From positions 31,124,001 through 31,188,000 of the forward strand of contig NC_135808.1 in assembly GCF_964213995.1 (NCBI RefSeq): a DNA stretch of 64,000 nt, given 5' to 3'. Each line of letters opens with the position of its first letter. Position 1 is the first letter of the stretch. The position numbers and the translations under genes were made by a program. Under the pieces are notes generated by a model. That model was not told where the DNA came from, did not search any database, and saw nothing but the letters and a program-made list of their open reading frames with translations. The stretch comes from Mustelus asterias (taxonomy: Eukaryota). Below, one piece after another: positions 1,321 to 39,742 of the stretch.

Positions 1321-1340
1321 GTTCTCTGTACTGGAATCCA

Positions 1341-1360
1341 CATTTTCACTTTCATTTCTT
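1341..1360 (-). promoter_or_regulatory. ISRE/IRF-E-like element upstream of the TRIM start codon
   Basis: Minus strand reads AAGAAATGAAAGTGAAAATG, i.e. tandem GAAA repeats including GAAANNGAAA, 21-40 bp upstream of the ATG. Confidence 0.6.
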
Positions 1361-1969: not shown

Positions 1970-2727
1970 GAGGGCGCTCCCTCAGGAATTCCTGCAGTGC
2001 ATCTTGGAGACAGTCACACAGCTGCTATGGTTTATCGGTGGTGGAGGGAGCGAATGTTAGTGGAAGGGGTTAGCAATCAAGCATGGCTGCTTTGTCCTGG
2101 ATGCTGTCTAGTTCTTGAATGTTGTTGGAGCTGCACTCATCCAGGCAAGTGGAGAATATTCCATCACACTCCTGAAATTCATAACTTATTTCATAAAGTT
2201 TTATAGCACAGAAAGAGGACCTGAGGCCCATCATGTCTGCATTGGCCATCAAACACCTATCCTAATCCCATTTTCCCACTCTTGCTCCATAGCCTTGTAT
2301 GTTATGGTATTGCAAGTGCTCATCTAAATGCTTCTTAAATTTTGTGAGGGTTCCCACCTCTCTCACCCTTTCAGATAGTGTTCCAGATTCCCACCACCCT
2401 CTGGGTGAAAATGTTTTTCCTTAAATCTCCTGCTCTTACCTTAATTCTATGCCCCCTAGTTATTGACCCCTCTATGAAGCAGGAAAAGTTTCTTCCTTGT
2501 TACCCTATCTCTCTTATAATTTTGTACACTTTGATGAGTTCCCCCCTCAGATTTCTCTGCTCTAAGGAAAACAATCCAGCAGCCTCTCTTCAAATCTAAA
2601 ACTCTCCAGCAATAACCTTTGCATTCTTTCTAGTGCAATCACATCCTTCCTTTAGTGTGATGATCAGAATTGCATTCAGTACTCGAGCTGTGGTTTTATA
2701 CAGCTTCATCATAACCTCCCTGCTCTT

Positions 2728-8942: not shown

Positions 8943-9401
8943 CAAAAAAACCCCGGATGTTTGTGGGACTCTTTTTGCAGGCCCAGGTTGAATGGCCACA
9001 ACCTGTGCACTGGAATAGAGTTCTGAACCTAATAGGGTGAGTCAAATTACAGTGGGCCGATCATGTGTGGTGAGTGTGTGTGAGAGTGAAAAGCATCTGA
9101 GCTGAACACATGCGGACAAGGAGGCATTTGTCTGTTATGGATTCTCAAGTGAGTGTAAAGACTGGAGAAAGGTTGCCTGAGATGTGATGTTCAGACGTGA
9201 GTGAGAAAGAAACTGTGTGAGAGAGAAACTGTCTGAGTGATCACTGGAATAGTGTAAGCTTAATAGTGTAAGCGGTGGTACGGAGGGATTTGATCACCCC
9301 TGACAGGTAACACCGGACTCTGATAAGAGCGACCTAGGAGTGGGAGAGTGAGAAGGGAGAATAGAAGGCTCCAAGTGGTGAGTATAAAACTTATCTGTAT
9401 T

Positions 9402-10454
9402 ATGGTGGGATCACAAGTACAAGGACAGTGGGGACTACCGGAATCCCTGATAAATGAGTGTATGACTGAGAGGAACAAATTCATTAAACAGATGAGAAAA
9501 GGGGGGTGGAACTTATCCTACCCTCTGGGCCAACAGCATAAGTGGTTGAGTAAAGAAAAGAGAAACATGACAAAGAAAATAGGAATATTGTTAATACATC
9601 AGTTAGCTGGACTAATTGAGCAAGTCGTTGCCTCTACTCAAAAGTGGAGTGAGGATAAAGAAAGGATTAGGGAGTTAGAATGCAGAGTAAGGGGACTGGA
9701 GAAACAAAACCAAGTATTAGAAGAACAGCAATGGAGAGGGGAAACCATTCCTCTACCTCCTTATGAGTCCATACAACAGGAACTAAACACTCTTCCAGAG
9801 GAATGGGACGCCCGAGAACACAACTTAGTGCCAGTAACCCAAGGGGGAACAGATACACAGCCAAAAGTAAATTATGAACCTTTCACCCTGGGTGAGAGGC
9901 AGCAGATAATGGTTTCCCTGGGTAAATTACAACCTAGAAGCGCAAACACTAAATTCTGGGAAGAATTAGACACAATTTGGGTAGGACACCAATTACACCT
10001 GAGAGACGTACACCAGCTGGTAAGGGCAGCCTGTCCAGCGGGTAAGTGGAGGCAGGTAGCAGGTAGACCCGCCGCTCCTCCAGCACAGGATTATAGTGGG
10101 GGACGGTGGACACATGTAGTCGCCCTAACATCAGAGATAGATGCCCAACAGACACCCTTCGCCCAGTTTAAAGTAGAAATTCTGAGAGTATTAGGGAATG
10201 CTCCCACTAACTGGAGCAGAATGACCACAACGAAACAGCTAAAAGGAGCTTCTGAATGTGGGGGATGGTTGTTCCAGGTACATCAGGAGTGCTCTGGACA
10301 AGGAAACCCAGGTCAAGGGGATCGAGCGTTCATCCAGGCTTTTAAGGATGAATTCTTTAGTGTTCACCAAAAACTCCTTGAAATGGGAATTCTCAGTACC
10401 CCGAACTATGATGAGTTGATAGAATGGGCGAATGGCATACCTGGAGGTGGATAG
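9402..10454 (+). CDS. gag: ERV Gag-like protein (~350 aa; capsid-like region, no CCHC nucleocapsid)
   Basis: First long ORF after the PBS and leader. Contains a coiled-coil segment, an LPPY late-domain-like motif, and YEPFT...HQLHLRDVHQLV resembling the gamma/epsilon CA N-terminus. First ATG at 9402. Confidence 0.75.
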   Translation: MVGSQVQGQWGLPESLINECMTERNKFIKQMRKGGWNLSYPLGQQHKWLSKEKRNMTKKIGILLIHQLAGLIEQVVASTQKWSEDKERIRELECRVRGLEKQNQVLEEQQWRGETIPLPPYESIQQELNTLPEEWDAREHNLVPVTQGGTDTQPKVNYEPFTLGERQQIMVSLGKLQPRSANTKFWEELDTIWVGHQLHLRDVHQLVRAACPAGKWRQVAGRPAAPPAQDYSGGRWTHVVALTSEIDAQQTPFAQFKVEILRVLGNAPTNWSRMTTTKQLKGASECGGWLFQVHQECSGQGNPGQGDRAFIQAFKDEFFSVHQKLLEMGILSTPNYDELIEWANGIPGGG

Positions 10455-11944
10455 GAGAGATCTTAGTTTTTGTATTTCAGTGTGTTTGTGTGATCTGGTT
10501 TCTAGTCGAATGTAGGTGGTTGTTGTTGTATTAAATTGAGAGCAGGAATTGTTGAAACCTTTGTTCTTGTGGAGTGTTTATTGCGGGTAATAAATGACCT
10601 TAGTTTAGCCTCAGGAATGCTGGGGAGGTGTTAAGACTGTTAAAGATTAAAGTGATAAGATTTCTTGCATTTACTTCTGTTTTGAGTTTTACTTTCAGTT
10701 TGGAAGAAAGAAGAATAAAAGTGACTGTCTTAATCCAAGTTCTGTATTCTTTTAAATGTTTTACTTATATGTCAGTTTAAGATGTTAAGTTTGAATGAGT
10801 GGTGGAAGCTTCCATGTGTGTCTGTGTGTGTTTAACAGAGTTGTTTGTTTTGATGTGATTTTACAACTGTGGGTTTGATACAGAGTTTGAATAAAATTAG
10901 AAGATAAATTGAAGTTTCAAAATCAAAGTACATAATTTGAAGTTGGAAATAGCCAATTTGAATTTTGAATAAACCTGTGTTTGAATTTTGTTAAGAAAGG
11001 ATTTTAAACCTTGGAGGGAACCATGTGCTCTCTCCTTTGTCTTAAAGTGAAGATTATGAGAGAATTAGTAGAGAAATTGGGAGAAGAAATTAAGTAATTT
11101 TATGGAAAAGTAGATAAGCAAGAACAAAAGAATGTCTATGAGTCAGTTTAACATATTTTAAGTTAAGTGAAATGAATTGTAATTCTGCTTATTTCACGTT
11201 CCAGCAGGAGATTAATCAATTAAATCTTAGTTGCCAATGCAAATTGCCCTTACAAATGTCTGATAGTTTAATGTTCTGTAACTGGTTAAAATTATGTACT
11301 GCCGTTGGAATTTTATGTGCTATCTATTGTTCAAAGTTTGCCAAATATTGAGCACTGTCAAGCTTAAAATCTAGCCAGTTAAAATCAAACCAAAAGGTTT
11401 CTGATTAATTAACTAGTGTGTATTGTACCTGCTTTGGTTTTGATTTGGCGCCTGTTGTTTTCCTCAAGTGCGGGGGGGGGGTTTTATCTGGAGCTTGGTT
11501 TAAATTGGAAACGGATTGGATTAAAGGGGTTTGGATATCACAGTTATGGTGTGTAAAGTGGTATGATACAACTGCCGCTTGATTATTTTTATCATACAGT
11601 ATAGCACTGCTATATCGACCCGGAAATAAAATCAAATTCTGAAAAGCATTCACCAATTTTGTATAATATAGTTATATATTATATGTTGTGTATTGATAAA
11701 ACATAATTCTGTAGGAGCTTCCTGTTTTCCTCGCCATACAAATGATTAAACTAGAGATAATATCAGGGTACATTATATAAAGATTGGAGCTGTATGGTAT
11801 GTGATTTTAATGGGGAATGCGATGTTTTTTGATGAGATTATTTACAAATGAATGGATGTCCAACTACAGCCAAAAAACCAGTTTAAAGTGTTATTTAATT
11901 CACACTAAGCTTTCTATGGAAGGGGGGTGTGTAGTTAAATGTAT

Positions 11945-12299
11945 AATGTACTAGCTAAAGCCATACAGACATCGGGGAAATTGTGGACAGAGATATTGCC
12001 CACTATACTGATGAGATTAAGAATTACCACAAACCGGACAACCGGATTAACCCTTATGAATTAATGACAGAATGGGTGATGATGTAGGTTCACTAAAAGA
12101 TGAATTCAGGAGATATATTTTGGAACTAAGCACCCAACTTAAAGGCTTGCGCAAATTGGTAAAAGACAATCTGGAACAAAGAGACACAGAGAGAGAGAGA
12201 GCTTGAAATGCTCCCTGACGGGCAGGAAGTTGCGTCCAAGTAAAAGCATTACTTGACAAACCTGGGTTCGACCCTCAATGGGAGGGCCCCTATAAAGTT
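11945..12299 (+). pseudogene. pol: Integrase C-terminal remnant (only surviving part of pol)
   Basis: Manual translation gives NVLAKAIQTSGKLWTEILPTILMRLRITTNRTTGLT/PYELMT (frameshifted) and PQWEGPYKV (GPY/F motif) at 12273-12299. Confidence 0.8.
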
Positions 12300-12445
12300 A
12301 AAATTGTGTAGTGTGCTTAATTCACAGATATGCGAGACGGTTGACCTCCAAGCAAGCTGAACGGGTTCGCGGGCAGTGGCGCGCGGGCGGTATAGCCTTT
12401 GGACCATTGTATAACGGTCGCGCGGGTTATTAGTTAAGTGATAGG

Positions 12446-14026
12446 ATGATTTTCTTGCTGCTTCTCACGACCCTTGCCCTGCTAGTTACGGAGGGGAAGT
12501 ATAGATGGAATTGTGTAGACTTGAGGATAGAGCATCGCAAGCATGTAACGATGGCTCTGTCTATTGTAACCTTCTGACACATGGAATAAGTCCCTGGGAG
12601 GTAACCCGTAGGGACCGCTGCTTGGGATTCCTTAACCATGCCATGTTGCTAACTCTGTTGGAGGGGCGAGGTGATTGGGGTCTCCCATGCATGTAATGTG
12701 GTGTAACTGGAATTTTTGGTGTTTAGCTGAGGGACCGGGATGGATCTGTACCCGGCAACAGCAGAGGGCTCGGGAGGATGTGTACATCAACACGAGATTT
12801 GGTCGATCCAAGCAATCATTGTACCAATCCTCTAAAATCAGGCCCCATCACATGAACACTTTCATGTATATGTCTCACTTGTATGTATTGCAGTCAAAGT
12901 TTTGAGCAAGTGCTGGGTCTGCTCACATATTCCCATGCACGAAGGAAAGGGGGGAAAGTCCTTTATTCCCTATCCCTTTGTCAACTCCGGGAATAGTAGA
13001 GGGGATTTCGAATCAGAATGGAACCCACGATGGGACAAGGAAAGTGACATTTTAAAAAAAACCCCATCAGGCATGTTGTGAAAACCCAACAAGGGGGATC
13101 TATCTGCTTGGTAAGAAACGGAACCATACTTATTGGCCGTAGCTACTGTACCCAGCAGATTAATGTCACCAGTGATGCCTGGGCTTTGGCGCAACAGATT
13201 ACAATCCATTACCCTACTGCTGATGTCCTGGTCAGCCTCTCCTCTACTTATATGAGCAGCATGGCTGCATATAATGGTACCTGTTGTGTGTGTGGAAACA
13301 ATGCCGACCCATGGCTTCCTTGGGATTGGGTAGGATCGTGTTATTTAGTATATGTGGTACCCTATATTCACCGTTACTGAGACAGAATGGTTCTTTATGA
13401 TAGCTTTCCCACTTTATGGGACAGCAAAAGCAGCACAGGAACTTATACATATGGCCTCGACCTTGGAGAGAATTGCAAATGAAACTAGAGACAGGTTCGA
13501 GGAGGTGAGCACAGCCTTCTCTGAAGTATCAGCTGAGGTTGTAGCTATCCGGACTGTTGCTTTACAGAACCGATTGACACTTGATTATGTGTTGGCTTTC
13601 CAGGGAGGAACGTGCGCGATAATTGAATCTGAATGCTGCACGTATATCCCAGATGTTTCGGAAAATGTAACTCGTTTGGCAGATCATATCAAACGAGTGA
13701 CGATGACAATACAAGGTGAAGGGAGCCAATATCATAATTATAACCCTCCGGGATCACTGGGGCAATGGTTCAGGTCGTGGGAATCATATCTGATGCACAG
13801 GTTAATTGTATTAATTGTCATTGTTATCGCATGTTGTATTTGTATGGCATTATTGAACGCTTGTTGTAAAACGGTAACAGCCCGAATTATGCCGAGTGCA
13901 AGTGTACAGGCAGAAGGGACAGACTTCCTGATGAAGGAGGTAGGCCCATATGTATTGGTAACATTTGGCTCTGAGTTGGTCATGGGGCCATGTTTGCACT
14001 TGGCCTCTGACCAAAGGGGGAATTGA
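12446..14026 (+). pseudogene. env: Gamma-type env; SU disrupted, TM reading frame open at 13352-14026
   Basis: Signal peptide MIFLLLLTTLALLVTEG at 12446 and CWVC (SU CXXC) at 12911. TM has LQNRLTLDYVLAFQGG (immunosuppressive domain), CAIIESECC (CX6CC) and a transmembrane segment LIVLIVIVIACCICMALL. No furin site remains. Confidence 0.9.
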
Positions 14027-21615: not shown

Positions 21616-21621
21616 TTTATT
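21616..21621 (-). promoter_or_regulatory. Probable polyadenylation signal of the MHC class I gene
   Basis: AATAAA on the minus strand about 330 nt after the stop codon. Confidence 0.55.
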
Positions 21622-21950: not shown

Positions 21951-22147
21951 CTAGGCTCTGCCAGTCTCTTCCTGTCTCTGCCGGTTGCTGCCACTTTCTG
22001 CCATTATATGCTGGTTGATGCCAGTATTCCTGCTCGGTTTCTTCCTCCGGAAACCAATGCCAATGACGATGCCAAGAAGAGTGAGTGAGATGGCTGTTGC
22101 TCCAATCATAATCCTGACCTTCACATCTTCTTGTGTCACTCTCTCTG
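21951..22147 (-). CDS. MHC class I exon 5: connecting peptide, transmembrane segment and cytoplasmic tail
   Basis: TM IMIGATAISLTLLGIVIGIGF followed by basic stop-transfer RRKK. NAGNAG acceptor (CAG CAG; exon start 22147 or 22144). TAG at 21953-21951. Confidence 0.82.
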
Positions 22148-25100
22148 CTGGCACATAGAGATTGATTAATATTATATCGATAAACCTCCTAATAATTCTG
22201 TGCTTCATTGACCTGCAAACTAGTGGAGCAGGCACGGCTTCAGATGGGAAGTCCACCCATGCCCAAGTAAGGCCCAAAAGTGGCCACTTAAGGACCTTTT
22301 CCCTCCAATCCTCAACTTTCTGGCTGGTGGCTACCGGATGTCTCAGAAAAAGTTAAGAACTTTGTGACTTGAGGGGGAGGGGTGAGGATTTTGGGGGGGA
22401 TGAGGGCTGCATCTCCCTCAGAAGTCACCTTCTGAGTGGGGAGGGGAAACATCCGCCCCTCAAGGAGCAGACCTCTGGTTCTCCACACTCCACTGGCCAT
22501 CCCACAATAGAATTAACCTGGTGTTGTTAAACTTCTTACTGTGTTGATCCCACAATAGCCCAGTCACCACCCGCGTCCTCATAAACCACCAGGGAATACC
22601 CATCCCGAGACCCCTGCCACATAACTTACACTGGCTCCCTGCACTTAACCCCAGGCCTGACCTGCAGTACCTCTTCCGACCACCGCAGCGCTATGCCTGG
22701 ATGGGCTGGAGGGCTGTTGGCAAATCTGATTGGCCGTCCGCTCTCCAAAGACACGTCTTATTTCCAAATGAGGATGGAAGTACGGCCTGCTGCCATCAAT
22801 ACTAATTACAGCGTTAAAATGGCAGCGGGACTGTCGCACGGTGGGGTTCAAGCCTCTGTCAGCCAAATCTTCAGGACACAGACTTTTTATTTATTTGTGT
22901 CACAAGTAGGCTTACATTAACACGGCAATTAAGTCACTGTGGAAATCCCCGAGTCGCCACATTCCAGCGCCTGTTCGGGTACACTGAGGGAGAATTTAGC
23001 ATGGCCAATGCACCTAACCAGCTTTTGGACTGTGGGAGGAAACCAGAGCACCCAGAGGAAACCCACGCAGACACAGGGAGAATGTGCAAACTCCACACAG
23101 ACAGTGACCCAGTGCTAACCACTGTGCCACTTGATCGCTCACTCAATGAAATACTCTTTTCTGTTGCATTCTTTTGAATTTTTCCCCAAACCCCTCTCCC
23201 ACCCCAGCTTTACAAACCAGTTGCAACTCCTGCTGTGGGAAAAGTGAAACATCTTGGCCTAGTCGACATTGTAGCAGTAAAGGAAATTGTAAGAATGAGG
23301 AGTAGGAGTAAATCCTATGGTCTCACAGAGCTGATCTGTCTGTCGTTCAGTAAGGTCATTGCTGAACTTATCCACCAATCCCTCGGCAAAACGGGATTAG
23401 TATTGACACAGTGGTTCGCACTGCTGCTTCACAGCACCGGGGCCCAGGTTCGAGGGGCCAAAAAGTTCCGCCCAGCCTTGGGTCACTGTCTGTGTGGAGT
23501 TTGCACATTCTCCCCGTGTCTGCGTGGGTTTCCTCCCACATTCCAAAGACATGGAGGTTAGGTGGATTGGCCATGCTAAATGTATGGGGATAGGGAGGAT
23601 GTGGGACAAAGCTGGGTAAATGGAGTTGGGTCACCGATTGGTGACTGAACAATGAAACAGGTTCGAGGGGTGTATTCCTATTTCTGTATTCCTCAGTCTA
23701 ATGGAATGCCCAATCCTTTTGATTACCAACATTTAATAGATCCTCACCTTTAAAAAAATAAGCGTAGAATGGCTGACCATGAGAGGTGAAACCATCTGAA
23801 CCTCACTGGGGCTTCCTGCTTTGAATAATCTGGCTGAGGGAGCACACACAGGGCTGGCTCTGCTGCCCTGTCACTTGTAACTTACGATGTGGAGATGCCG
23901 GCGTTGGACTGGGGTAAACACAGTAAGAAGTTTAACAACACCAGGTTAAAGTCCAACAGGTTTATTTGGTAGCAAAAGCCACTAGCTTTCAGAGCCTTAA
24001 GCCCCTTCTTCAGGTGAGTGGGAATTCTGTTCACAAACAGGGCAGATAAAGACACGAACTCAATTTACAGAATAATGGTTGGAATGCGAATACTTACAGC
24101 TAATCAAGTCTTTAAGGTACAAACAATGTGAGTGGAGAGAGCATTAAGACAGGTTAAAGAGATGTGTATTGTCTCCAGACAGGACAGCCAGTGAGACTCT
24201 GCAGGTCCAGGCAAGCTGTGGGGATTACAGATAGTGTGACATGAATCCAATATCCCGGTTGAGGCCGTCCTCATGTGTGTGGAACTTGGCTATCAGTTTC
24301 TGCTCAGCGACTCTGCGCCGTCGTGTGTCGCGAAGGCCGCCTTGGAGAACGCTTACCCGAATATCAGAGGCCGAATGCCCGTGACCACTGAAGTGCTCCC
24401 CAACAGGAAGAGAACAGTCTTGCCTGGTGATTGTCGAGCGGTGTTCATTCATCTGTTGTCGCAGCGTCTGTATGGTTTCCCCAATGTCCCATGCCTCAGG
24501 ACATCCTTTCCTGCAGCATATCAGGTAGACAACATTGGCCGAGATGCAAGAGTAGGTACCGTGTACTTGGTGGTACACGGTACACGGTACATACTCTTGC
24601 AACTCGGCCAACGTTGTCTACCTGATATGCTGCAGGAAAGGATGTCCTGAGGCATGGGACATTGGGGAAACCATGCAAACGCTGTGACAACAGATGAATG
24701 AACACCGCTCGACAATCACAAGGCAAGACTGTTCTCTTCCTGTTGGGGAGCACTCCAGCGGTCACGGGCATTCGGCCTCTGATATTCGGGTAAGCGTTCT
24801 CCAAGGCGGCCTTCACGACACACGACGGCGCAGAGTCGCCGAGCAGAAACTGATAGCCAAGTTCCGCACACATGAGGATGGCCTCAACCGGGATATTGGG
24901 TTCATGTCACACTATCTGTAATCCCCACAGCTTGCCTGGACCTGCAGAGTCCCACTGGCTGTCCTGTCTGGAGACAATACACATCTCTTTAACCTGTCTT
25001 AATGCTCTCTCCACTCACATTGTTTGTACCTTAAAGACTTGATTAGCTGTAAGTATTCGCATTCCAACCATTATTCTGTAAATTGAGTCTGTGTCTTTAT

Positions 25101-28100
25101 CTGCCCTGTTTGTGAACAGAATTCCCACTCACCTGAAGAAGGGGCTTAAGGCTCCGAAAGCTTGTGGCTTTTGCTACCAAATAGACCTGTTGGACTTTAA
25201 CCTGGTGTTGTTAAACTTCTTACTTGTAACTTACCCCAGCGTACATCGAGGCCCTGTAAGAGGCTGGCATGCTCGATGCGACAGGAATATATCTCCCCAC
25301 CATCTTCACTGAGCTCCATCGTTTTCATCACCCGATACGTCTCGTCCTGGTTGGGGAGCGTGCCACTGGATTCAACACTGAGGACCTCCTCACCATTCTT
25401 CAACCACGTCACGTCGATAGGCCATGGGTAAAAGGCCGTCACAAGGCAGGAGAGTCTCAGCACTCGCTCGCCCTCGCTCCGGTTCGTAATATACACCTCA
25501 GGGGTGGCTGAGAAAGTGAAACAAAGACCAAAAATCACTGACCATGGAGTTTCGACAAAAGGTCATCAACCTCATAGAATCCCTACAGTACAGAAGGAGG
25601 GTATTTGGCTCTTCGAGCCTGCACCAACAACAATCCCATCCTATCCCCATAACCCCACATATTTACCCTTCTAATCCCCCCGAAACGAGGGTCAATTTAG
25701 CTTGGCCAATCAACCAAACCCGCACATCTTTGGGAGGAAACCGGAGCACCTGGAGGAAACCCACGCAGACACGGGGAGAATGTGCAGACTCCACACAGAC
25801 AGTGAAGCAAGCTGGGAATCGAACCTGGGTCCCTGGTGCTGTGAGACAGCAGTGCTAACCACTGTGCCACCGTGCCATCAACCTGAACCACTAACTCTGG
25901 CTCTTTTCTCTCCTTACAGATGCTGCCAGACCTGCTAAGATTTTCCAGCATTTTCTCTTTTGGTTTCAGATTCCAGATTCCACAGTAAAATTTGTTCTTA
26001 GCCAGTGTTTACTGTCGGCAGAACTTTTCAGCCATTCCCGCTGGCTGGTTTTCCAGTCCCAACAAAGAACAAAGAACAATACAGCACAGGAACAGGCCCT
26101 TTGGCCCTCCAAGCCCGCACCGCTCCCTGGTCCCAACTAGACCATTCTTTTGAATGCCTCCATTCCCACTCCGTTCATGTGGCTATCTAGATAAGTCTTA
26201 AACATTCCCAGTGTGCCCGACTCCACCACCTTTCCCGGCAGCGCATTCCAGGCCCCCACCACCCTCTGTGTAAAATACATCCTTCTGATATCCGTGTTCA
26301 ACCTCCCCCCCCTCACCTTGAACCTATGACCCCTCGTGAACGTCACCACCGACCTGGGAAAAAGCTTCCCACCGTTCACCCTATCTATGCCTTTCATAAT
26401 TTTATACACCTCTATTAGGTCACCCCTCATCCTCCGTCTTTCCAGTGAGAACAACCCCAGTTTACCCAATCTCTAAACTGGGGTTGTTCTCACTGGAAAG
26501 ACGGAGGATGAGGGGTTGAAGCCTTTTGAATAGCCCTACCTACTGCCACCTCCCACAAACCACATCCCGTCTCCTGCCGCAACCAGACCATAAAATTCCA
26601 CCCTCTCTTTTTCTCTCTCTCTCTGCAGATGCTGCTGAGAATTTCCTGCCTGCACCTTTTCTTTCAGATTTCCAGCATGACAGATGTTTGTTTTTGCATT
26701 AATTGTTTGTTAAATTCGTCCATGGGATGTCACTGGCTGCCCTCCATTTCAGAGGGCAATTAAGAGTCAACTACATTGCTGTGGGTCTGGAGTCACATGC
26801 AGGTCAGACAGGATAAGGATGGCAGATTTCATAGAATCCCCACAGTACAGAAGGAGGCTATTAGGCCCATTGAGTCTGTACCGACCACAATCCCACCCAG
26901 GCCCTATTCCCACAACACCACGCATTTACCCTACTAATCCCCTGACACTAGGCTCAATTTAGCATGGCCAATCCACCTAACCCTCCATCTTTGGACTGCG
27001 AGAGGAAACCAGAGCAACCGGAGGAAACCCACACAGACACGTGGAGAATGTGCAGACTCCACACAGACAGTGACCCGAGGATGGAATTGAACCTGGGACC
27101 CTAGTGCTGTGAGGCAGCAGTGCTAACCACTGTGCCACCCTTCCCATGAGTGAACTAGATGGGATTTTACAACTATCAACACTGGTTTCATGGTCATCAT
27201 GCGACTTTTAATTCCAAAATAAAATTTTTGGGATGTTTTAATTTCAGATTTTTATTGAATTCAAATGTTCCCATCTGCACTGGCAGAATTTGAACCTAGG
27301 TCTCCGAGAACTGCCCTGGGTTACTATGTCAATTAAAACACCTCCCCTTGACAAACCCTCTTATCATTCCTTCATTATTTAGTGTCCATTAACATTCTCA
27401 GTTGAAGGCAGGTGACTGATGCTCCTATCGAATCACAGAATGCCTACAGTGCAGAAGGATGCCATTCAGCCCATCAAGCCTGCACCGACAACGCAGACCC
27501 TATCCCCGTAACTCCAAATTACTCCACATATTTACCTTGCTCATACCCCTGACACTGAGAGAGAATTTAGCATGGCCAATCAACCCAATCTGCACATCTT
27601 TGGACTGTGGGAAGAAAACAGAGCACCCAGGGGAAACCCAAACAGACACGGGAAGAATGTGCAAACTCCACACAGACAGTCACTGAGGGATCCTCTGTAT
27701 GCGTAGCCCTGTTTACTTCAGTCTATGCAAAGACTTCATTTTAAGATATCTTTGCCTCGACAGAATTACATTTAAATGCTGGACTGTAGGGACTCTGCTC
27801 AGCTGAACATGAAGGCATGATGGCTTAGCTAAAAACTGACTGCATTCCTGAAAAGTAAACAATGCAGGCAAACAACAGTTCCCCATAACAGCAGCTATCA
27901 GGATTATTTTCGAGATGGAGACAGCATGCGAAAAACACTTCTTGTAACAAGATAGAGTTGAAATATATTTTGGTTTCAGAGAGTTTGTGTTCAAGTTCAG
28001 TTCAATTCAGTTCTTAGATTAGAGGGACTGGTTTAGAAGCAGTCTCCAAGTTTGCTTTTCTTTGCTTTTGTCATGTTAATTTTTTTAAGTTCTTTCCAAT

Positions 28101-31100
28101 AAAAGAATATCATTTTAAAACTCATACCAGTGCTGTCCTCTCGTCTCTTCACACAAATGAATGGACCCAACAGTCACCCAAGACCAGAATTGAACCCGGG
28201 TCCCTGGCACTGTGAGGCAGCAGTGCTAACCACTAAATGCTAACAACTAAATAAGTAAATTCAGTCCAATTCTTTCATCCCCTCACCTCACAACCTACGA
28301 ACAAGTAATGCTGTAACTGACGGCAGTGGCAGCGTCAACTTACTGCTACCCTGCCCAAGAACAGTTGGCCCCCAGAGAGGGACCTGGTATAAAACTTAGG
28401 GTGGAATTTTTCAGCCTCATCATTGCAGAAACAGGATCTGCAAATGAGGCGAACCGTTCAAAGGAAAATCCTGCTGGCGAGCAGGGCTGTAAAATTCCTG
28501 TCTGTGCCACATGGGAACCCCGGGGAGCGCTCCGTCTAGTCACCATACCTCTCCTCTGCAGAACCCCTCGCCCATACTCGAGATATATCAGTAGCCATTT
28601 CACGCAGTCCTTTTCCAACAGAGCCTTGAAGTACTTGTTCATGAAGGTGTTGGCATTCCATCTGCTCGCTAACATCTGGAACTCTGGATTGAGTGCTCTC
28701 CAGCTCGTTCTGTCCTTATTAAAAACAAACGCATCTTCCCCATCATATCCCACCTTTATAAATCCATTCGTGGTGTTATCACTGTATATTTCACAGCCAC
28801 ACATTCCCTGGACAAAGAAAATACCTGGAAATTCACAATGTGCAAAATATTTGGTCAGATTGGCAAAAATTTGTGTTTATACAGTGATTTTAACATCATA
28901 AAACACTCCAAGAACTCCTCACAGGTGCACTATCGAGCTAGATTTAACCTGGAACCACATGGGAAGATTGGGCATCATGGTGGCACAGTGGTTAGCACAA
29001 CACCAGGGACCCGGGTCTGTGAATACCTCCGCCAGCTGATCTGCAGGATCTGAGTGCATGTCTGGGTACTCCATCTGGAGGACCACGATCTGGGGTGAAA
29101 GTGGCCCTCTGTCCTACCCGAAACGGGTTGCGTCTTCGGAGCCAAGAGCTGTCAATGAGCACCTGTCGCAGACTGGCACCTTCTACGGACTACGTTCCGA
29201 GAGACACACTAACATTTTGAGCGACCCCTGCAAATGCTCAATCGGGAAAGACCACTGCCAAAGACTCCCCCACTATTGTAAAATGAGGAGCTAAAAACTC
29301 CAGGATTCCTGGATGTGTCCTTGATTTCCCATTGGTGGGAATTACTTCCATCAAAGTTGGACCATATGTTTGACATGATAATCTACATTGTATGAATATA
29401 ACTTGTAATTGTAAATGCAGCGATGCACCTCAGAGGACCACAGTATTGAAAGAAACAGAGCTAGTTAAGCACTTTACAGAATCATGAAATCATATAACCC
29501 CCACAGTGGGGAAGAGGCCATTCAGCCCATCAAGGCTGCAACAGGTCTGCACCAACTCTCTGACAGAGTATTATACCCAGACTCTCTCCATTGCCCTATC
29601 CCTGCAACCCCACACATTTATCATCTATCTAACCGACACATTGGATAATTTAGCATTGCCAATTCATCTAACTTGCACATCTCTGGATACTGAGGGACAA
29701 TTTTCATTCCACCAAACCTGCACATCTTTGGAATGTTTTACATAACGTCAAATTTGAAATGTTATCAGTGAGGTGCACAAAATAATGGAGGGATAAAGTT
29801 AGTGTGGTTAGCAAGAAACGTTTCCCCTTAGCAGAAGGGGTCAATAACCAAGCGACATTGGTTTAAGGTCAGGGGCAAGAGATTTAGAGAGGATTTGAGG
29901 AAAAACCTTTTTCACCCAGAGGATGCTGAGAATCTGGAACTCACTGTCAGAAAGGGTGTAGAGGCAGGATGCCTCAACATTTAAGAACTATTTAGATGAG
30001 CACTTGAACTGCTACAGTATACAAGGCCATGGACTAAGTGCTGGAAAATGGGATTAGAATGGATAGGTACTTGAATCCTTTCCTCTGGACACACTGTCAC
30101 CGCACTGTCTCTGTGAGGACACTTACCTGCAGCTCCACCGCGCTGTCGGTAAAATATCTCAGCGTTCCCTCTGACCAGGCCGTGGAATCCCGCCATCGTG
30201 ATCATCATGTCCGTCCAGTGATCTCTCTGGAAGGAGTCAGACATCCACTGCTGTCTGGGCACGATGCGCTCCAGGGTGCTGTCAAAATAGACTATCTGAT
30301 AGTCATCCAGCATCGCCACCAAGCTGTACTCGGGAAGCTCGGCCTGGCCAAGGTTCAGTAAGTAGTAAAATGCCAGGATGTGAAAATCTGCGGGGTCACA
30401 AGCAGGGACCAGTCTCAAAAACAATTGTGAAATAACTGGTGGTAAGAATGTCCACGGTAAATGCTACACCAGAGCATAAGAAATAGGAGCAGGAGTAGCC
30501 CACACCGGCCCTCGGATCTGCTCCACCATTCAATAAGATCAGGGCTCAGCTGCTACCGTGAGAGGCAACCTTCTTGAGACATACAGGGCAGGGATTTATA
30601 GTCTTGCTCGACTCGAGACTGGACAATCCTGCCCGCGGTCTACCAACCTTCCTATTGTCCACCCCCGGCTCGCTCCGATTCCCATGGTGGGCAGGACAGT
30701 GGAATTCCAATGACAGGATTCTCAGGGGGTTTGACAGAGTCGATGCTGAGAGGTTGTTCCTTGTGGTGAGAGATTCTAGGACCAGACGGCATAATCTCAG
30801 AGTAAGGGTCACCCATTTAAAACAGATGAGGAGGAATTTCTACCCTCAAGGGGTAGTGAATAAGTGGAATTCTTTACCACAGAGGGCTGTAGAGGTTGGA
30901 TCATTAAGAATGTCCAAGGCTGAGATGGATAGATTTTTAATAGTAAAAGAATCTAGGGTTATCAGGATAAGGCGGGAAAGTGGAGTTGAGGATTATCACA
31001 TCAGATCAGTCATAGAAACCCTACAGTGCAGAAAGAGGCCATCTGGCCCATCGAGTCTGCACCGACCACAATCGCACCCAGGCCCTACCCCCATATCCCA

Positions 31101-34100
31101 ACACATTTACCCACTAATCCCTCTAACCTACACATCTCAGGACACTAAGGGGCAATTTTAGCATGGCCAATCAACCTAACCCGCACATCTTTGGACTGTG
31201 GGAGGAAACCGGAGCACCTGGAGGAAACCCACGCAGACACGAGGAGAATGTGCAAACTCCACACAGACAGTGACCCAAGCCGGGAATTGAACCCAGGTCC
31301 CTGGAGCTGTGAAGCAACAGTGCTAACCACTGTGCTATCGTGCCGCCCTCATTGCAGGTCATGATCTCATTGCAGAGCAGACTCGATGGACCAAATGGCC
31401 TACTTCTGCTCTGACATATTATGGTGTCCAGTCCACTTCCCTGCCTCGATTCGCTTCCTAACCTGGAATCTGCCCCAGTCACTGTTGAGTGTTTGCATCG
31501 TTGAGCATCCAGAGCTCCCTGGGATGGAGAATTCCAAGGATCCCAGTCAGAAACTGTGTCCAAATTTAGATCCTGTCAATTCAGGAGCATCGAGGGCCAA
31601 CTGAAATTCTTTCCTCTGGGACAGAGAGGGCCTAACAGATCCAATAAAGAAGCCAAATCCATCAGGGGTGGGGTGGTGTTCAGCAACAGAATGAGAAGAG
31701 TCACAGGGATTTGAAACATTCCCTCTGCTTCTATCTCCACATAGGCTGCTTGACTTGCTAAATCTATGATGTGGAGATGCCGGTGTTGGACTAAACACAG
31801 TAAGAAGTCTCACAACACCAGGTTAAAGTCCAACAGGTTTATTTGGTAGCAAAACCCACTTGCTTTCAGAGCGCTGTCCCTTCGTCAGGTGAGTGGGAGT
31901 TCTGTTCACAAACAGGGCATATAAAGACACAAACTCAATTTACAAAATAATGGTTGGAATGCGAGTCTTTACAGGTAATCAAGTCTTAAAGGTATAGACA
32001 ATGTGAGTGGAAAGAGCGTTAAGCACAGGGTAAAGAGATGTGTCTTGTCTCCAGACAGGACGGTTAGTGAGATTTTGCAAGTCCAGGCAAGTTGTGGGGG
32101 TTACAGATAGTGTGACATGAACCCAAGATCCCGGTTTAGGCCGTCCTCATGTGTGTGGAACTTGGCTATCAGTCTCTGCTCAGTGACTCTGCGCTGTCGT
32201 GTGTCGTGAAGGCCGCCTTGGAGAACGCCTACCGGAAGATCAGAGGCCGAATGCCCGTGACCGCTGAAGTGTTCCCCAACAGGAAGAGAACACTCTTGCC
32301 TGGTGATTGTCGAGCGGTGTCCATTCATCCGTTGTCGCAGCGTCTGCATGGTCTCCCCAATGTACCATGCCTCGGGACATCCTTTCCTGCAGTGTATCAG
32401 GTAGACAACGTTGGCCGAGTTGCAAGAGTATGTACCGTGTACCTGGTGGATGGTGTTCTCACGTGAGATGATGGCATCCGTTTCGATGATCCGGCATGTC
32501 TTGCAGAGGTTGCTGCGGTGTCGTGGTCACTGTTCTCCTGAAGGCTGGGTTGTTTGCTGCGGACAATGGTCTGTTTGAGGTTGTGCGGTTGTTCGAAGGC
32601 AAGAAGTGGGGGTGTGGGGATAGCCTTGGCGAGATGTTCGTCTTCATCAATGACATGTTGCAGGCTCCGGAGAAGATGTCGTAGCTTCTCCGCTCCGGGG
32701 AAGTACTGGACGATGAAGGGTACACTGTCCACCGTATCCTGTGTTCGTCTTCTGAGGAAGTCGGTGCGGTTTTTCGCTGTGGCGCGTCGGAACTGTCGAT
32801 CGAGGAGTCGAGCGCTATATCCTGGTCTTATGAGGGAATCTTTCAGCGTCTGGAGGTATCTGTTGTGATCCTCCTCATCCGAGCAGATCCTGTGTATTCG
32901 GAGGGCTTGTCCGTAGGGGATGGCTTCTTTAACGTGTTTAGGGTGGAAGCTGGAGAAGTGGAGCGTCGTGAGGCTATCCGTGGACTTGCGGTACAGTGAG
33001 GTGCTGAGGTGACCGTCCTAAATGGAGATGCGTGTGTCCAAGAATGCAACCGATTCCGGAGAGTAGTCCATGGTGAGTCTGATAGTGGGATGGAACTTGT
33101 TGATGTCATCATATCGTTGTTTCAGTGATTGCTCAACATGAGTCCAAAGGAAGAAAATGTCATCGATGTATCTAATGTATAGCATCGGTTGAAGGTCCTG
33201 TGCGGTAAAGAGGTCTTGTTCGAACCTGTGCATGAAGATGTTGGCATATTGAGGTGCGAATTTGGTCCCCATGGCTGTTCCGTGTGTCTGGATGAAGAAC
33301 TGGTTGTTGAAGGTGAAGGTATCGTGGTCCAGGATGAAGCGGATGAGTTGTAAAATTGCATCTGGAAACTGGCAGTTGTCGGCATTGAGTACTGAGGCAG
33401 TTGCAGCAATGCCATCGTCATGGGGGATGCTGGTGTAGAGTGCCAAGAAATCCTTTGTGACGAGGAGTGCTCCGGTTCAACTGCTCCACGTGTGCTGCTT
33501 TTCTGTAGGAAGACTGTAGTGTCGCGACAAAAGCTGGGGGCTCTTTGTACAATGGGATTCAGGATGCCGGAGATGTTCTCGCATAGGGTCCCATTTCCTG
33601 ATACGATGGGACGGCCGGGTGTGTTTGTCTTGTGTACCTTTGGGAGGCAGTAGAGATCTCCAACGCGGGATCAACCGGGATCCTGGGTTCATGTCACACT
33701 ATCTGTAACCCCCACGACTTGCCTGGACTTGCAAAATCTCACTAAAAGTCCTGTCTGGAGACAATGCACACCTCTTTAACCTGTGCCTAACGCTCTCTCC
33801 ACTTATATTGTCTGTACCTTTATGACTTGATTACCTGTCAAGACTCGCATTCCAATCATTATTTTGTAAATTGAGTTTGTGTCTTTATATGCCCTGTTTG
33901 TGAATAGAACTCCCACTTACCTGACGAAGGGGCAGCGCTCCGAAAGCTAGTGGCTTTTGCTACCAAATAAGCTTGCTCAATTTAGCCAACGTTTTCTGTT
34001 TTCATTTCAAGTTTTCTAGCATTTACAGTATTTTGCATCTATATTAATAAGAACCAATGCTTCTTGTTGTTTGTTGAGTTGGGAACCAGACAGGCAGAGA

Positions 34101-37100
34101 TGGTGGCGCAGTGGTATTTTCATTGGTCTACTAATCCGGAGACCCAGGGTAAGGCTCCAGGGACCCAGTCTGAATTCGACGTATGGCAGATGGTGAAATA
34201 TGAATTCACTAAAAATCTAGAATTAAAAAGTCTCCTAATAATGATCAAGAAACCATTGTCGTAAAATACCATCTGGTTCACTAATGTCCCTTTTGGGGAG
34301 GGAAATCTGTCATCGTCACCCTGTTGGTCTACATGTGAATCTACATCCGCAGCAGTGTGGTTGACTCTGAAATGGCTTAGCAAGCCACAGAATTCAAGGG
34401 CAATCAGGGATGGGCAGTAAATGCTGACCTAACCAGTTACATCCATGTCCCATGAAAGATTATTTTAACAACAAAGAACAAAGAACAAAGAACAGTACAG
34501 CACAGGAAACAGGCCCTTCGGCCCTCCAAGCCTGTGCCACTCCTTGGTCCAACTAGACCAATCGTTTGTATCCCTCCATTCCCAGGCTGCTCATGTGGCT
34601 ATCCAGGTAAGTCTTAAACAATGTCAGCGTGCCTGCCTCCACCACCCTACTTGGCAGCGCATTCCAGGCCCCCACCACCCTCTGTATAAAAAACGTCCCT
34701 CTGATGTCTGAGTTATACTTCGCCCCTCTCAGCTTGAGCCCACGACCCCTCGTGATCGTCACCTCCGACCTGGGAAAAAAGCTTCCCACTGTTCACCCTA
34801 TCTATACCCTTCATAATCTTGTATACCTCTATTAGATCTCCCCTCATTCTCCGTCTTTCCAAGGAGAACAACCCCAGTCTACCCAATCTCTCCTCATAGC
34901 TAAGACCCTCCATACCAGGCAACATCCTGGTAAACCTTCTCTGCACTCTCTCCAATGCCTCCACGTCCTTCTGGTAGTGCGGCGACCAGAACTGGACGCA
35001 ATACTCCAAATGTGGCCTAACCAGCGTTCTATACAGCTGCATCATCAGACTCCAGCTTTTATACTCTATACCCCGTCCTATAAAGGCAAGCATACCATAT
35101 GCCTTCTTCACCACCTTCTCCACGTGTGTTGCCACCTTCAAGGATTTGTGGACTTGCACACCTAGGTTCCTCTGTGTTTCTATACTCCTGATGACTCTGC
35201 CATTTATTGTATAACTCCTCCCTACATTATTTCTTCCAAAATGCATCACTTCGCATTTATCCGGATTAAACTCCATCTGCCACAATCAAGGAAACAATTT
35301 TGGGTCATTTGGGATATGGAAGTTGGGGTTTTCAGACTCCTCGTGGAAGCTAGTGTCCGGTGGGGTACCAGAAGGATCTGTGCTGGCTCCCCTATTGTTC
35401 GTCATTTATACAAGCAACATAGATGGGTATGGATGGGGTAGGGTGAGTAAGTTTGCGGATTACACAAAGATTGGCCAGGTGGTTAACAGTGAGGCTGGGT
35501 TTCTTGAGTTACAAGAAGATATAGACAGGATGGTCTGATGGGCAGAAAGTGGCAGATGGAATTTAACCCTGAAAAGTGTGGCGGAATACCCTTTGGAAGG
35601 AGTAATTTAACAAGGAAGTATTCAATCACACGAGGACATTCTGTGGAACAAAAGGACCTTGGTGTGTTTGTCCATAGATCTCTGAAGGCGGAAGGGCATG
35701 TCCATAGGGCAGTGAAAAGGGCATATGGGACACTTGCCTTTAATACAAAAGCAGAAAAGTCATGTTGGAGCTGTATGGAACTTTGGTGGGGTCACAGCTG
35801 GAATACTGTGTGCTGTTTTGGTCACCACATTATCGGAAGGATGTGATTGCACTGGAGGGGGTGCAGAGGAGATTCACCAGATGCTGCCTGAGATGGGACA
35901 TTTAAGCTATAAAGAGAAGTTGGACAGGCTTGGGTTATTTTCGTTGGAGCAGAGAAGACTGAGAGGCAACCTGATCGAGGTGTACAAGATTATGAGGGGC
36001 ATGGACAGAACTGATGAGAAGCAGCTGTTTTCCCTTAGTCAAAGGGTCAGTCACGAGGTTCAAGGTGAGTGGCAGGAGATATAAGAGGGATATGAGGGTG
36101 GGTAAGAGAGTGGTGATGGTCTGGAATGTGCTGCCTGGGAGGGTAGTAGGGGTGGGTTGCCTCACATCCTTTAAAAATACCTGCATGAGCATTTGGTACA
36201 TCAGAGCATTCAAGGCTCTGGGCCAAGTGCTGGTCGATGGGATTAGGTGAGAGGTCAGGTGTTTCTCGCGTGTCGGTGCAGACTCGATGTGCCGCAAGGT
36301 CCCTTGTGCATCTTATGATTCGGTGATTCTGTGAATGGATGCCAAGAGTCCATACTTGAAAGTTCCTCACCCGTCATTTTCCTCCCACAGGTGACAATTT
36401 CCAATACGCCAAATTCAAGTTAACAACGCAATAAGCTGGTTTAGCCTCTGGCATCAGTTCAATTGTTGCAGAGTCTGCAGCTAATTCTCTCCATAATCAC
36501 ATCGGCCTTGACTCACTCAGACACTGCAATAAACCCTATGGTTTGTTCAGAAATTTACAACAAAAAGTCATTCTTGGGCCACAGCAGCAGATTGGGCAGT
36601 GCCAAAGTTCACTGTGATTTCTACAAGAAGAAGGCGGAGCCAGAGGGCAGGGTTAGAAACCACACCGGCTGCAGTGTCACCCCCGCTAGTGAAGCAGGAG
36701 GAGGTTCAGGAGGAATTTACATTTATACTGTGCCTGTCACAGCCTCTGAGTGTCCCAAAAGGCTTCGCAGCAAATGGGGTATTCCTGAAAGTGCACGGTT
36801 ACTGGTTTGTATGAAACTTCATTCATCGTGCAGAGTGGTTTGAACCCAGAGCTAAAAGTAGAGCTTTCATAGAATCCTACAGTGCAGAATGAGGCCATTT
36901 GGCCCATCGAGTCTGCATTGACCACAATGCCAACCATGCCCTATCCCCATAGCATCCCATGCATCTACCATGCATCTACCCCAGCTAGTCCCCCTGACAC
37001 TAAGGGGCAATTTAGCATGGCCAATCTACCTAACCTGCACATCTTAGGAGTGTGGGAGGAAACTGGAGCACTCGGAGGAAACCCGCGCAGACACAGGGAG

Positions 37101-39742
37101 AACATGTAGATTCCAAACAGACAGTGACCCAAGCTGGGAATCGAACCCCGGGTCCTTGGCACTGTGAGGCAGCAGGGCTAACCACTGGGCCACCACACTG
37201 CCTCTAATAGCAGAGAATAGTTTTGATTCACCAACCTCTGGGTTATGGGCCCAGCATGCTTCCGCTGCACCACTCTGCTATATGCTAATGTTCAATGTGA
37301 GGATATGTTGCATCTCTCTCTCTCAACCTTTCTGCACATACATATGTCAGACTTTCATTTGTTTCTGTAACTAATTATTCCTAGAACAGCTCACTAATCT
37401 GTCACCGGGGGCTTATAATTTGAGGGGCATTACACCACATCAAGCAGAGTCACACTCATTCACCCTCTCACACAGACAAACTAAGGGGTAATCTACAAGG
37501 GGAGCAGATGGCTCAGTGGTATTATCGCTAGATTGTTAATCCAGAAACTCAGCTAATACTTGACCTTGGTTTGAATCGCGCCACAGCAGCTGGTGGAATT
37601 TGATTTCAATAAAAAATATCTGGAATTAAGAATTCACTGATGGCCATGAAACCATTGTCGATTGTCCAAAAAACCCATCTGGTTCACTAATGTCTTTGAG
37701 GGAAAGAAATCTGCCGCCATTACCCGGTCTGGCCTACATGTGACTCCAGAGCCGCAGCAATGTGGTTGACTCTCTGTTGCCCTCGGGCAACTACGGATGG
37801 GCAATAAATGCTGGCTAGCCAGCGACACCCATGTCCCATGAATGAATAATTTTAAAAATTACAAAGGCCATTCCTCCTCACTTATACATGTTGGGACACT
37901 AAGGGTGGGCGGCACGGTAGCACAGTGGTTAGCACTGCTGCTTCACAGCTCCAGGGTCCCGGGTTCGATTCCCGGCTCGGGTCACTGTCTGTGTGGAGTT
38001 TGCACATTCTCCTCATGTCTGCGTGGGTTTCCTCCGGGTGCTCTGCTCCCACAGTCCAAAGATGTGTGGGTTAGGTTGATTGGCCAGGTTAAAAAAATTG
38101 CCCCTTAGAGTCCTGGGATGCGTAGGTTAGAGGGATTAGCGGGTAAAATATGTGGGGGTAGGGCCTGGGTGGGATTGTGGTCGGTGCAGACTCGACGGGC
38201 CGAATGGCCTCCTTCTGCACTGTAGGGTTTCTATGATTCTATGATTCTATGAATTTAGCATGGCTAATCCATCTAAACTGCACATCTTTGTATCGTGGAG
38301 GAAACCGGAGCACTTGGAGGGAACCCACACAGACACGAGGAGAATGTGCAGACTCCATCCAGGAATCGAACCCGGTCCCTGGTGCTGTGAGGCAGCAGTG
38401 TTAACCACTGTGCCATGAAACTATTGTCAATTGTCATAAAAGCTCACCTGATTCACCTATGTCCTCTACCTGACCGGAGAAAGCTGATCTGGCTTACGTG
38501 TGACTCCAGATCCACAGCAATGTAGTTGACTCTTCAAATGGTCTCTGCCCTCTGAAATGCACTGGGTTCAAGGGTGATTAGGGATGGGCAATGAATGCTG
38601 GCCCATTCAGGAGAGCAAGGAAGGGGTATTCAGGAAAAAAAAATCCTGCTGTAATTTTCTTGTGTTTGAAATCCACAACCTGCACAAAAAAATCCCACCC
38701 CTGGGCTAAGTTCCCTTTATGTTCCTCAGCCCAGTTGATGTTTAATGTCCAGGAGGCAAAGCCAAAACCTGATTCATTACATGAGAGAGGAAAAAGAAAA
38801 CTAAATCAAACATCCACCCAGAGAAGGGCCCCGGTATTGCTCAAAATCTTTCTCCTTGCCTTTCCACCTTTGCATTAAATTTTCACTTCCATTGCCTTTC
38901 CATTCTCGTTCCTTCCTTTCAATCCCATTGCCTTTCCCAATCCTCTTCCCCTCCCCTCACCTTCCCTTCTTTTCCCTTTCAAGTTACAGTTCCAAGACAT
39001 CCCATCTCAATGGGAAATTCACCGAAGCCCCTCAGACAGCACCTTCCAACCATGACCACTTCCATCTCAGAGGACAAGGGAACACCACCTCCTGCAAGTT
39101 CCCCTCCAAGCCACTCATGATCCTGACTTGGAAATATATCATCGTTCCTTTGCAGTCGCTGGGTCAAAATCCTGGAAATCCCTCCCTAACGGCATTGTGG
39201 ATCAACGCACAGCACAGGGACTGCAGCGTTTGAAGAAGGCAGCTCACCACCACCTTCTCAAGGGCAATTAGGGATAGGCAGTAAATGTTGGCTAGCCAGC
39301 GATGCCCATATCCCACAATTGAATTTTTAAAAATGATCATATTATGTTTGTGCGTTTAAATAATAGCAGCCAACCCATGAAATAACATCCCCAGTCAAAA
39401 ACACTGCAGACAAATCATCAACACAACTCATCACAGTAGCCCTCTCCTGCAGGAATCATCCTATCCTGTGGCTCTGTCAATCCTGGGAAGGGTCCCGGCA
39501 GAAGTGCTGGGTTCCAATGACTGGCGACTAAGGACTTATAACAACGGTTTATTCAGCATTCTGAGCAGCTCTTGGCTGCTCCCACTCTGCCCGTTTTCCG
39601 GAGAGAACGCACACGCTTCTGCCATATGAGCCTTTAAATCACATGAGCACTCGGTCTACAGACCCTCCAAATACTGTTTGAATGGCTTACCGGAGGAGAC
39701 TATAGAAACACAGCAGACATTCAGTAAAGTAACAAGCAGCAT
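21951..39742 (-). CDS. Non-classical MHC class I alpha chain gene, 5 coding exons, 352 aa predicted
   Basis: Exons 39742-39691 (52 nt), 30387-30127 (261), 28824-28549 (276), 25507-25235 (273) and 22147-21951 (197) total 1059 nt. All introns are GT-AG and phase 1, and the spliced frame has no internal stop. Confidence 0.9.
23886..25221. mobile_element. PLE inverted pair (GIY-YIG end plus terminal repeats) in MHC intron 4
   Basis: About 650-bp near-perfect arms centred at 24567-24572. TSD ACTTGTAACTTAC at 23873-23885 and 25222-25234. Hammerheads at ~23979-24017 (-) and ~25129-25167 (+). Confidence 0.92.
25235..25507 (-). CDS. MHC class I exon 4, alpha3 Ig-C1 domain
   Basis: PEV...LSCLVTAFYPWPIDVTWLKNG...LPNQDETY...YSCRIEHASL...W. 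Acceptor TTTCTCAG| and donor G|GTAAGT. Confidence 0.95.
26061..26516 (-). mobile_element. CR1 3' fragment with (TTCTTTG)n tail and a fold-back at the 5' truncation
   Basis: LGLFSLERRRMRGDLIEVYKIM...FTQRVVGAWNALP. Inverted repeat at 26422-26516. Confidence 0.88.
27684..28172 (+). mobile_element. Solo LTR (489 bp) inserted in a V-SINE within MHC intron 3
   Basis: TG...CA termini (TGAGGGATCC / GGACCCAACA), perfect 5-bp TSD GTCAC at 27679-27683 and 28173-28177, AATAAA at ~28098. The SINE resumes exactly after the TSD. Confidence 0.8.
28549..28824 (-). CDS. MHC class I exon 3, alpha2 domain
   Basis: GIFFVQGMCGCE...GYDGED...W...DCVKWLLIYLEYGRGVLQRR. Canonical 276-nt size. Acceptor TTTCCAG| and donor G|GTATGG. 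Confidence 0.94.
30127..30387 (-). CDS. MHC class I exon 2, alpha1 domain
   Basis: DFHILAFYYLLNLGQAELPEYSLVAMLDDYQIVYFDSTLERIVPRQQWM...W. Acceptor CCCGCAG| and donor G|GTAAGT. Confidence 0.92.
31767..33970 (-). mobile_element. PLE with frameshifted RT and GIY-YIG and an inverted terminal repeat, in MHC intron 1
   Basis: ORF fragments 33018-33446, 32397-32732 and 32101-32349 match the PLE at 17331. Plus-strand terminal repeat at ~33670-33970. Hammerheads at ~31856-31892 (-) and ~33917-33953 (+). Confidence 0.9.
34468..35285 (-). mobile_element. CR1 3' fragment
   Basis: WQMEFNPDKCEVMHFG...LVRPHLEYCVQFWSP; (AAAGAAC)n tail. Further CR1 fragments at about 29760-30070, 30710-31000, 35340-36330, 47400-47740, 50110-50930 and 55745-56560. 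Confidence 0.9.
39691..39742 (-). CDS. MHC class I exon 1, leader peptide MLLVTLLNVCCVSIVSS
   Basis: ACAACATG start, hydrophobic 17 codons plus 1 nt, donor G|GTAAGC. Joins the alpha1 exon as G+AT (Asp). Not in the ORF track because it is short. Confidence 0.8.

Follow-up and report, generated by a model that had tools for sequence, protein, structure and literature searches.

The window analysed here is a stretch of 64,000 nucleotides of Mustelus asterias DNA (chromosome positions 31,124,001-31,188,000 of contig NC_135808.1), and its minus strand carries a major histocompatibility complex (MHC) class I gene. Five exons with GT-AG borders join in phase 1 into a stop-free heavy chain of 352 amino acids (Table 1), and the leader-alpha1-alpha2-alpha3-transmembrane exon plan, both disulfides and the class I fold place the product in the MHC class I family. 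A preliminary description of the window had proposed this same five-exon, phase-1 chain with both disulfides; rejoining the exons reproduced it, and the motifs it quoted all lie on the minus strand where it had put them, its 'LPNxD' reading LPNQD. A tandem CAGCAG forms the acceptor of exon 5; its second AG (22144) gives an alternative chain of 351 amino acids and agrees with the 'W-ERV' junction found in most orthologue models. Since none of 20 shuffled windows gave any match at E<0.01 to five class I queries, the class I signal is not due to chance, and a pseudogene reading was rejected because the gene is intact and conserved. We refer to the gene and its orthologues as lineage X.

Table 1. 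Positions in the window of the exons and associated signals of the lineage X gene
Feature	Position	Strand	Description
Exon 1	39691..39742	-	17-aa leader (predicted signal peptide), phase-1 donor; N-terminus same in orthologues P0007, P0008, P0015
Exon 2	30127..30387	-	alpha1: F7, H59, hydrophobic helix, AGFHG motif common to UGA, Q84, N86 sequon absent
Exon 3	28549..28824	-	alpha2: Q96, G97, C99, C101-C164 pair, sequon NTT, L143, R146, W147, L159, W167, Y171
Cys99 codon	28799..28801	-	Extra groove-floor cysteine
Exon 4	25235..25507	-	alpha3 Ig C1 domain, both cysteines, LPNQD
Exon 5	21951..22147	-	Connecting peptide, transmembrane helix, tail of ~33 aa without YxxPhi or di-leucine motif
Candidate polyadenylation signal	21616..21621	-	AATAAA, first after the stop, from the sequence

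From alpha1 through alpha3 the chain is identical to RefSeq XP_078075269.1, a Mustelus asterias protein named 'MR1-like'. The two models part at the 5' end. The first RefSeq exon maps to window positions 56435-56509 (minus strand), in sequence that resembles a remnant of a long interspersed nuclear element (LINE), and the RefSeq 5' end is probably wrong. We prefer the leader exon of Table 1 because the orthologues of Pristiophorus and Heptranchias have matching N-termini. Within the 660 bases upstream of the ATG we found no simple match to an interferon-stimulated response element (ISRE) or a kappaB site.

In the genome, alpha2 gave 69 matches and alpha1 gave 68, every one of them on this chromosome, to which all megabase positions below refer. 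The next best match to our gene is only 40-41% identical, and the gene is thus single copy among the scored candidates. Verissimo et al. 2023 supply labelled query alignments in their supplement (PMC10751288); comparison of 22 genomic stretches with these placed the Mustelus orthologue of UGA (L001/P0034) at 31.04-31.05 Mb, ~96 kb downstream on the same strand. The lineage X gene is linked to UGA within the MHC.

Orthologues of lineage X were found in 13 species, 9 sharks (Mustelus, two Scyliorhinus, Cetorhinus, Pristiophorus, Heptranchias, Chiloscyllium plagiosum, Hemiscyllium and Stegostoma) and 4 batoids (Pristis, Leucoraja, Mobula and Hypanus). Over alpha1-alpha2 they are 64-87% identical to the Mustelus protein; identity among UGA orthologues is 59-74%, and between X and UGA only 37-42%. 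UGA was also found in 9 of the 13 species, and in 7 of these both genes lie on contigs of equal reported size; X and UGA accessions are adjacent in skate (XP_055486429/430) and nearly so in bamboo shark (XP_043533869/872). Among the best 150 of 4071 profile matches, 20 of them named, there was no holocephalan or bony-fish orthologue, and word-limited searches gave none either, which is weak evidence of absence. In Heptranchias perlo (P0008 cluster), seven contigs carry eleven X models that are nearly identical to one another, reflecting either a local expansion or haplotypes left uncollapsed.

We inferred an ectodomain tree from 68 rows, 12 of them lineage X; the Chiloscyllium model, in which part of alpha3 is missing, was left out, and six rows taken out of gene models that fuse UDA with UFA were labelled by position. 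Such fusions recur in RefSeq, where models P0031, P0032, P0033 and P0039, from four species, join adjacent class I genes (UEA+UDA or UDA+UFA). Lineage X formed one clade (support 100/100) and UGA another (10 rows, 100/99), each with sharks and rays; X+UGA received 93/83 and X+UGA+UFA 99/96. The alpha1-alpha2 tree (41 rows) gave 100/99 for X, 86/62 for X+UGA and 94/79 for all three lineages, and a reduced tree (27 rows, quick method) gave 70 for X+UGA and 91 for the trio. Common ancestry with UFA and UGA, the shark CD1-like group, was thus recovered in all three trees. Because the X and UGA clades each hold sharks and rays, the duplication that produced X predates the shark-ray split, roughly 270-300 million years ago. 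These sequence comparisons establish lineage X as a clade separate from UGA and older than that split, and place it as the sister of UGA. The preliminary description had spoken of a non-classical elasmobranch lineage, possibly CD1-like or undescribed, and this reading is supported: the alpha1-alpha3 and alpha1-alpha2 trees group X with UGA and UFA, which have been reported as CD1-like and lipid-binding, and not with the peptide-binding lineages UAA, UBA or UDA. The word 'undescribed' may still stand, X being distinct from both of its relatives.

The described lineages were considered one by one as identities for the gene. It is not UGA, which has its own Mustelus orthologue with an alpha1 score of 140.5 bits to the UGA structure 9CH4, compared with 75.4 for our gene, and which forms a reciprocal clade; nor is it a UGA allele or haplotig, given 37% identity and the presence of both genes on one chromosome. 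UFA (L003/P0049, at ~32.24 Mb) has a separate orthologue and a separate clade, and UDA (L002, at ~32.28 Mb) has a separate orthologue and keeps 7-8 of the 9 peptide-terminus anchors treated below. UEA-type genes lie at 32.4-33.6 and 40.1 Mb; the row they matched is labelled nurse shark 'UCA', and in our own reading these genes are UEA. Assignment to UEA/UCA, a multicopy type with no C101 in alpha2, was rejected, as X has C101-C164, is single copy and forms its own clade (dogfish UCA was compared by eye only). UBA, a multicopy cluster derived from UAA, occupies 21.6-24.7 Mb, with UAA-type genes also on the chromosome, and was rejected on copy number and on its separate clade. Orthology with MR1 was likewise rejected, since equivalents of MR1 K43, R9 and R94 are absent and marsupial MR1 grouped with X in no tree.

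We took positions 7, 59, 84, 123, 143, 146, 147, 159 and 171 to be the nine peptide-terminus anchors, and hydropathy was averaged over 36 positions presumed to line the groove. HLA-A2 numbering follows the alignment of HLA-A2 with UGA that Verissimo et al. 2023 published as supplementary material (PMC10751288). The Mustelus gene keeps only two anchors (W147 and Y171) and has lost seven. Lineage X rows keep 1-2 (12 rows, 1 in two of them), UFA 1-2 and UGA 3-6, compared with 7-8 in UDA (8 rows) and 8-9 in UAA-type rows (5 rows), so the gene does not have the anchor set of a classical class Ia molecule. The alignment displays the substitutions noted earlier (Y7F, Y59H, T143L, K146R and Y159L), the retention of W147, W167 and Y171, the missing N86 sequon and the extra Cys99, and adds two anchor losses, R/Y84Q and Y/F123A. 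The N86 site is absent from all 12 aligned X rows. A replacement N-glycan sequon in alpha2 (DNTT/DNST), which the earlier reading had overlooked, is present in all 13 orthologues.

The groove of lineage X had the highest mean hydropathy of the eight class I groups compared, 1.23 (range, 1.10-1.38), against 0.62 for UFA, 0.61 for UGA, 0.36 for UBA, -0.14 for UEA, -0.29 for UAA and -0.92 for UDA; one UBA row (L016) reached 1.40 but, with 0 anchors, was apparently out of register, and gaps led to the omission of one UAA-type row. Only ~2 of the 36 positions are charged in X, compared with 6-10 in UAA and UDA. Conservation within X was 0.90 in groove columns, 0.82 in the rest of alpha1-alpha2 and 0.77 in alpha3, and 79 of 179 alpha1-alpha2 positions, outward-facing helix positions included, are invariant. 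This cross-species conservation of the groove, to which Mustelus contributes one assembly, points away from high allelic polymorphism. Ten positions are diagnostic of X and UGA together (L11, Y22, H71, G72, G76, G97, M152, F156, L159 and D163), of which H71, G72, G76 and D163 likely face outward. Positions found only in X include H59, C99, I114 and R146. Cys99 is present in 12 of 12 X rows, where UGA has Phe (10/10) and UFA has Trp (7/7), and no UGA, UFA, UEA, UDA, UBA or UAA row has a cysteine there.

The cytoplasmic tails of the three related lineages differ. A YxxPhi motif was found in 7 of 10 UGA tails and in none of the 13 X tails, whereas all three UFA models have almost no tail. Tyrosine-based endosomal sorting motifs are typical of most, although not all, CD1 isoforms, and lineage X lacks this CD1-type feature. 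Read from sequence, these differences suggest a division of labour resembling that among CD1 molecules. The UFA models (L003, P0049-P0051) end in a short hydrophobic stretch that may mean a lipid anchor or secretion.

A structure model built from a 116-row alignment (mean predicted local distance difference test [pLDDT] score, 85) adopted a normal class I fold. Its best structural match was PDB entry 9CH4, shark UGA (TM score, 0.95; root mean square deviation [rmsd], 1.7), also the nearest solved structure with Z 28.7, rmsd 1.6, 268 aligned residues and 39% identity. PDB entries 9CH4 and 8GM8, whose titles bear the names UGA and UFA, correspond to the nurse shark rows of those two lineages. 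Chicken CD1-1 ranked second among 48,161 representatives (Z 26.4; rmsd, 2.3; 262 aligned), and the ESM Atlas returned generic class I clusters only.

Comparison with known systems places lineage X closest to UGA, its sister clade and MHC neighbour, with the diagnostic residues and the best structural match described above. X nevertheless differs from UGA in having C99 for F99, H59 for Y59, F/V81 for W81 and W167 for L167, in lacking the N86 glycan and the YxxPhi tail, and in its more hydrophobic groove. With UFA it has the three-lineage clade, G97 and a paucity of anchors in common; UFA, however, is only ~28% identical to X and has a shortened alpha1 end and alpha2. Tetrapod CD1 resembles X in its hydrophobic groove, G97, small residue at 99, L159 and hydrophobic residue at 143, and in the published alignment human CD1 has G97 and L159 as X does, although identity to bird CD1 is 23%.

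In MR1, Lys43 forms a Schiff base, and Arg9 and Arg94 also have roles. Lineage X has H59 in common with MR1, which also supplies its best alpha2 sequence matches in the PDB, but carries I, A, T or C at the Lys43 position and Y9 and G97 in place of R9 and R94. The RefSeq label 'MR1-like' looks like a best-hit artefact, and the earlier idea of a metabolite presenter is weakened by the same missing residues. A Callorhinchus milii protein labelled 'UGA' in the 2023 supplement (P0082, which has the labelled alpha3) is likewise non-classical with few anchors and, at 30% identity to X and 27% to UGA, is no nearer to UGA than to X. It adjoined X+UGA+UFA in the 27-row tree without other long branches (SH-like approximate likelihood ratio test [SH-aLRT], 89), whereas in larger trees it fell beside a long coelacanth branch; it may represent a lineage of its own or be co-orthologous to all three.

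A 2025 review, citing a personal communication, describes UFA and UGA as CD1-like, present in sharks and rays in single or low copy number, with structures and mass spectra indicating CD1d-like lipids (PMC12562908, section 2.1). We propose, with a probability of about 0.6, that lineage X is a conserved single-copy non-classical class I molecule, sister to UGA, with beta2-microglobulin as its likely partner and a lipid as the likely cargo on display. It most likely works like UGA and CD1; lipid binding as such, argued from kinship with UGA and UFA and from groove chemistry, is somewhat favoured. The heavy chain would pair with beta2-microglobulin, and its hydrophobic groove would carry a lipid for display to a conserved receptor. 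With Gly97 and with Cys99 where UGA has Phe99, the groove floor could be somewhat roomier than in UGA. As the X tail has no YxxPhi motif, loading might take place in the secretory route or at the surface, not in late endosomes. The reader could be a conserved molecule, for example an innate-like T-cell or natural killer (NK) receptor; H71, G72, G76 and D163 are residues that X has in common with UGA only.

Several observations weigh against this proposal or parts of it. The sister relationship of X and UGA carries no star in any of the three trees (93/83, 86/62 and 70), and bird CD1, represented by two domains of one protein, joins the trio at only 55/55. X keeps W147, W167 and Y171, unlike CD1, and every X row has a much better score on Pfam MHC_I than on the CD1-type MHC_I_3 (93.6 compared with 34.3 bits, the latter under the 35-bit cut-off); the same holds for UGA rows. 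Summed floor side-chain volume, a crude measure, is 1452 in X, only ~5% below the 1524 of UGA. A peptide-binding chicken class I molecule reaches Z 27.7, and since UGA leads it by only 1 Z unit, the fold tells nothing about the ligand. Finally, the true leader is present in the representative models of only 2 of the 13 species; this scarcity may reflect sparse RNA support and proves nothing.

Instead of a full two-chain lipid, the groove might hold something smaller and hydrophobic or of hybrid nature, as that of chicken YF1 does; an N-acylated amino acid and a short lipopeptide are examples. The retained W147, W167 and Y171 would suit such a ligand, and chicken YF1*7.1 with N-myristoylated or N-palmitoylated glycine is among the fold matches (Z 26.6-26.8), but those scores tie with dozens of class I chains and UGA is closest by both tree and structure; we regard this as unlikely. 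It is also unlikely that the groove is closed or holds structural filler only, with the molecule acting in the manner of HFE, FcRn or ZAG, either in transport or as the ligand of a receptor. HFE and ZAG do match at Z ~25.8, and the invariant outward-facing helix positions and the absence of a simple ISRE or kappaB match upstream would fit; against this, the groove-facing columns are the most conserved, hydrophobic and with small floor residues, and the nearest kin are reported to hold lipids (PMC12562908, personal communication).

The restriction of Cys99 to lineage X raises the thought that it captures an electrophilic lipid or metabolite covalently, by analogy with the MR1 Schiff base, all the more as it has no obvious pairing partner besides C101/C164. 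A small residue at 99 may, however, merely widen the pocket, and HLA-A*02:07 carries Y99C and still presents peptide (PMC10205880), so Cys99 alone is no argument for a non-peptide ligand; we judge covalent capture improbable. Least probable of all is that X is a presenter of peptides, a limited hydrophobic selection bound in a non-standard register. Its class I fold is normal and it keeps both disulfides and W147, W167 and Y171, which would allow this, but seven of nine terminus-binding residues are lost in all orthologues, and the groove has few of the charged positions found in UAA and UDA. The proposal of a lipid-displaying sister of UGA can be extended, tentatively, to a three-member lipid-presenting family (UFA, UGA and X) that would predate the shark-ray split and whose tails would sort its members to different compartments, as in mammalian CD1 isoforms. 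X, absent from the named lineage lists, would be its most conserved and hydrophobic member, possibly with Cys99 as a lipid trap; we consider this extended view possible but doubtful.

Judged from its sequence, lineage X probably makes a third member of the shark CD1-like group, one that apparently has no name yet. The supplement of Verissimo et al. 2023 names UAA, UAA-2, UBA, UCA, UDA, UFA, UGA and UHA (PMC10751288), and our gene is none of the lineages named there; the 'UHA' row has, in our reading, no recognisable alpha1 and resembles a W-type beta chain. In the review PMC12562908 the lineage list stops at UAA, UBA, UEA, UDA, UFA and UGA. These two papers were the only relevant ones that a literature search for a name brought up. 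The sawfish locus has been catalogued with no lineage assigned, its protein corresponding to LOC127585976 by name and position only. We lean only slightly towards the lineage being unnamed; the primary work on UFA and UGA may name it, and 'low-copy UGA' could cover it.

The relative age of lipid and peptide presentation is an open question on which UFA and UGA are new evidence. A third lineage, more tightly conserved than UGA, would suggest that the lipid-type arm diversified early in elasmobranch history. Lineage X and the solved UGA structure offer a direct comparison on one and the same fold: X has Cys99 in place of Phe99 and lacks both the N86 glycan and an endosomal motif. The gene model given here corrects both the label and the first exon of the RefSeq entry.

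Other features of the window lie around the gene. Between it and UGA is a RING and B-box exon of a TRIM gene (window 841-1359, minus strand), and TRIM genes likewise flank the matching MHC-Ib group in sawfish. On the plus strand, positions 2656-5103 hold an uninterrupted reverse-transcriptase open reading frame (ORF) of 815 amino acids from a LINE-type element. A retrovirus-like stretch at 9327-14026 (plus strand) contains a 375-aa ORF without a Pfam match, gag-like by eye, and an ORF resembling an env transmembrane subunit (TLV_coat, E 1.9e-10). Several Penelope-like copies lie inside the introns of the lineage X gene.

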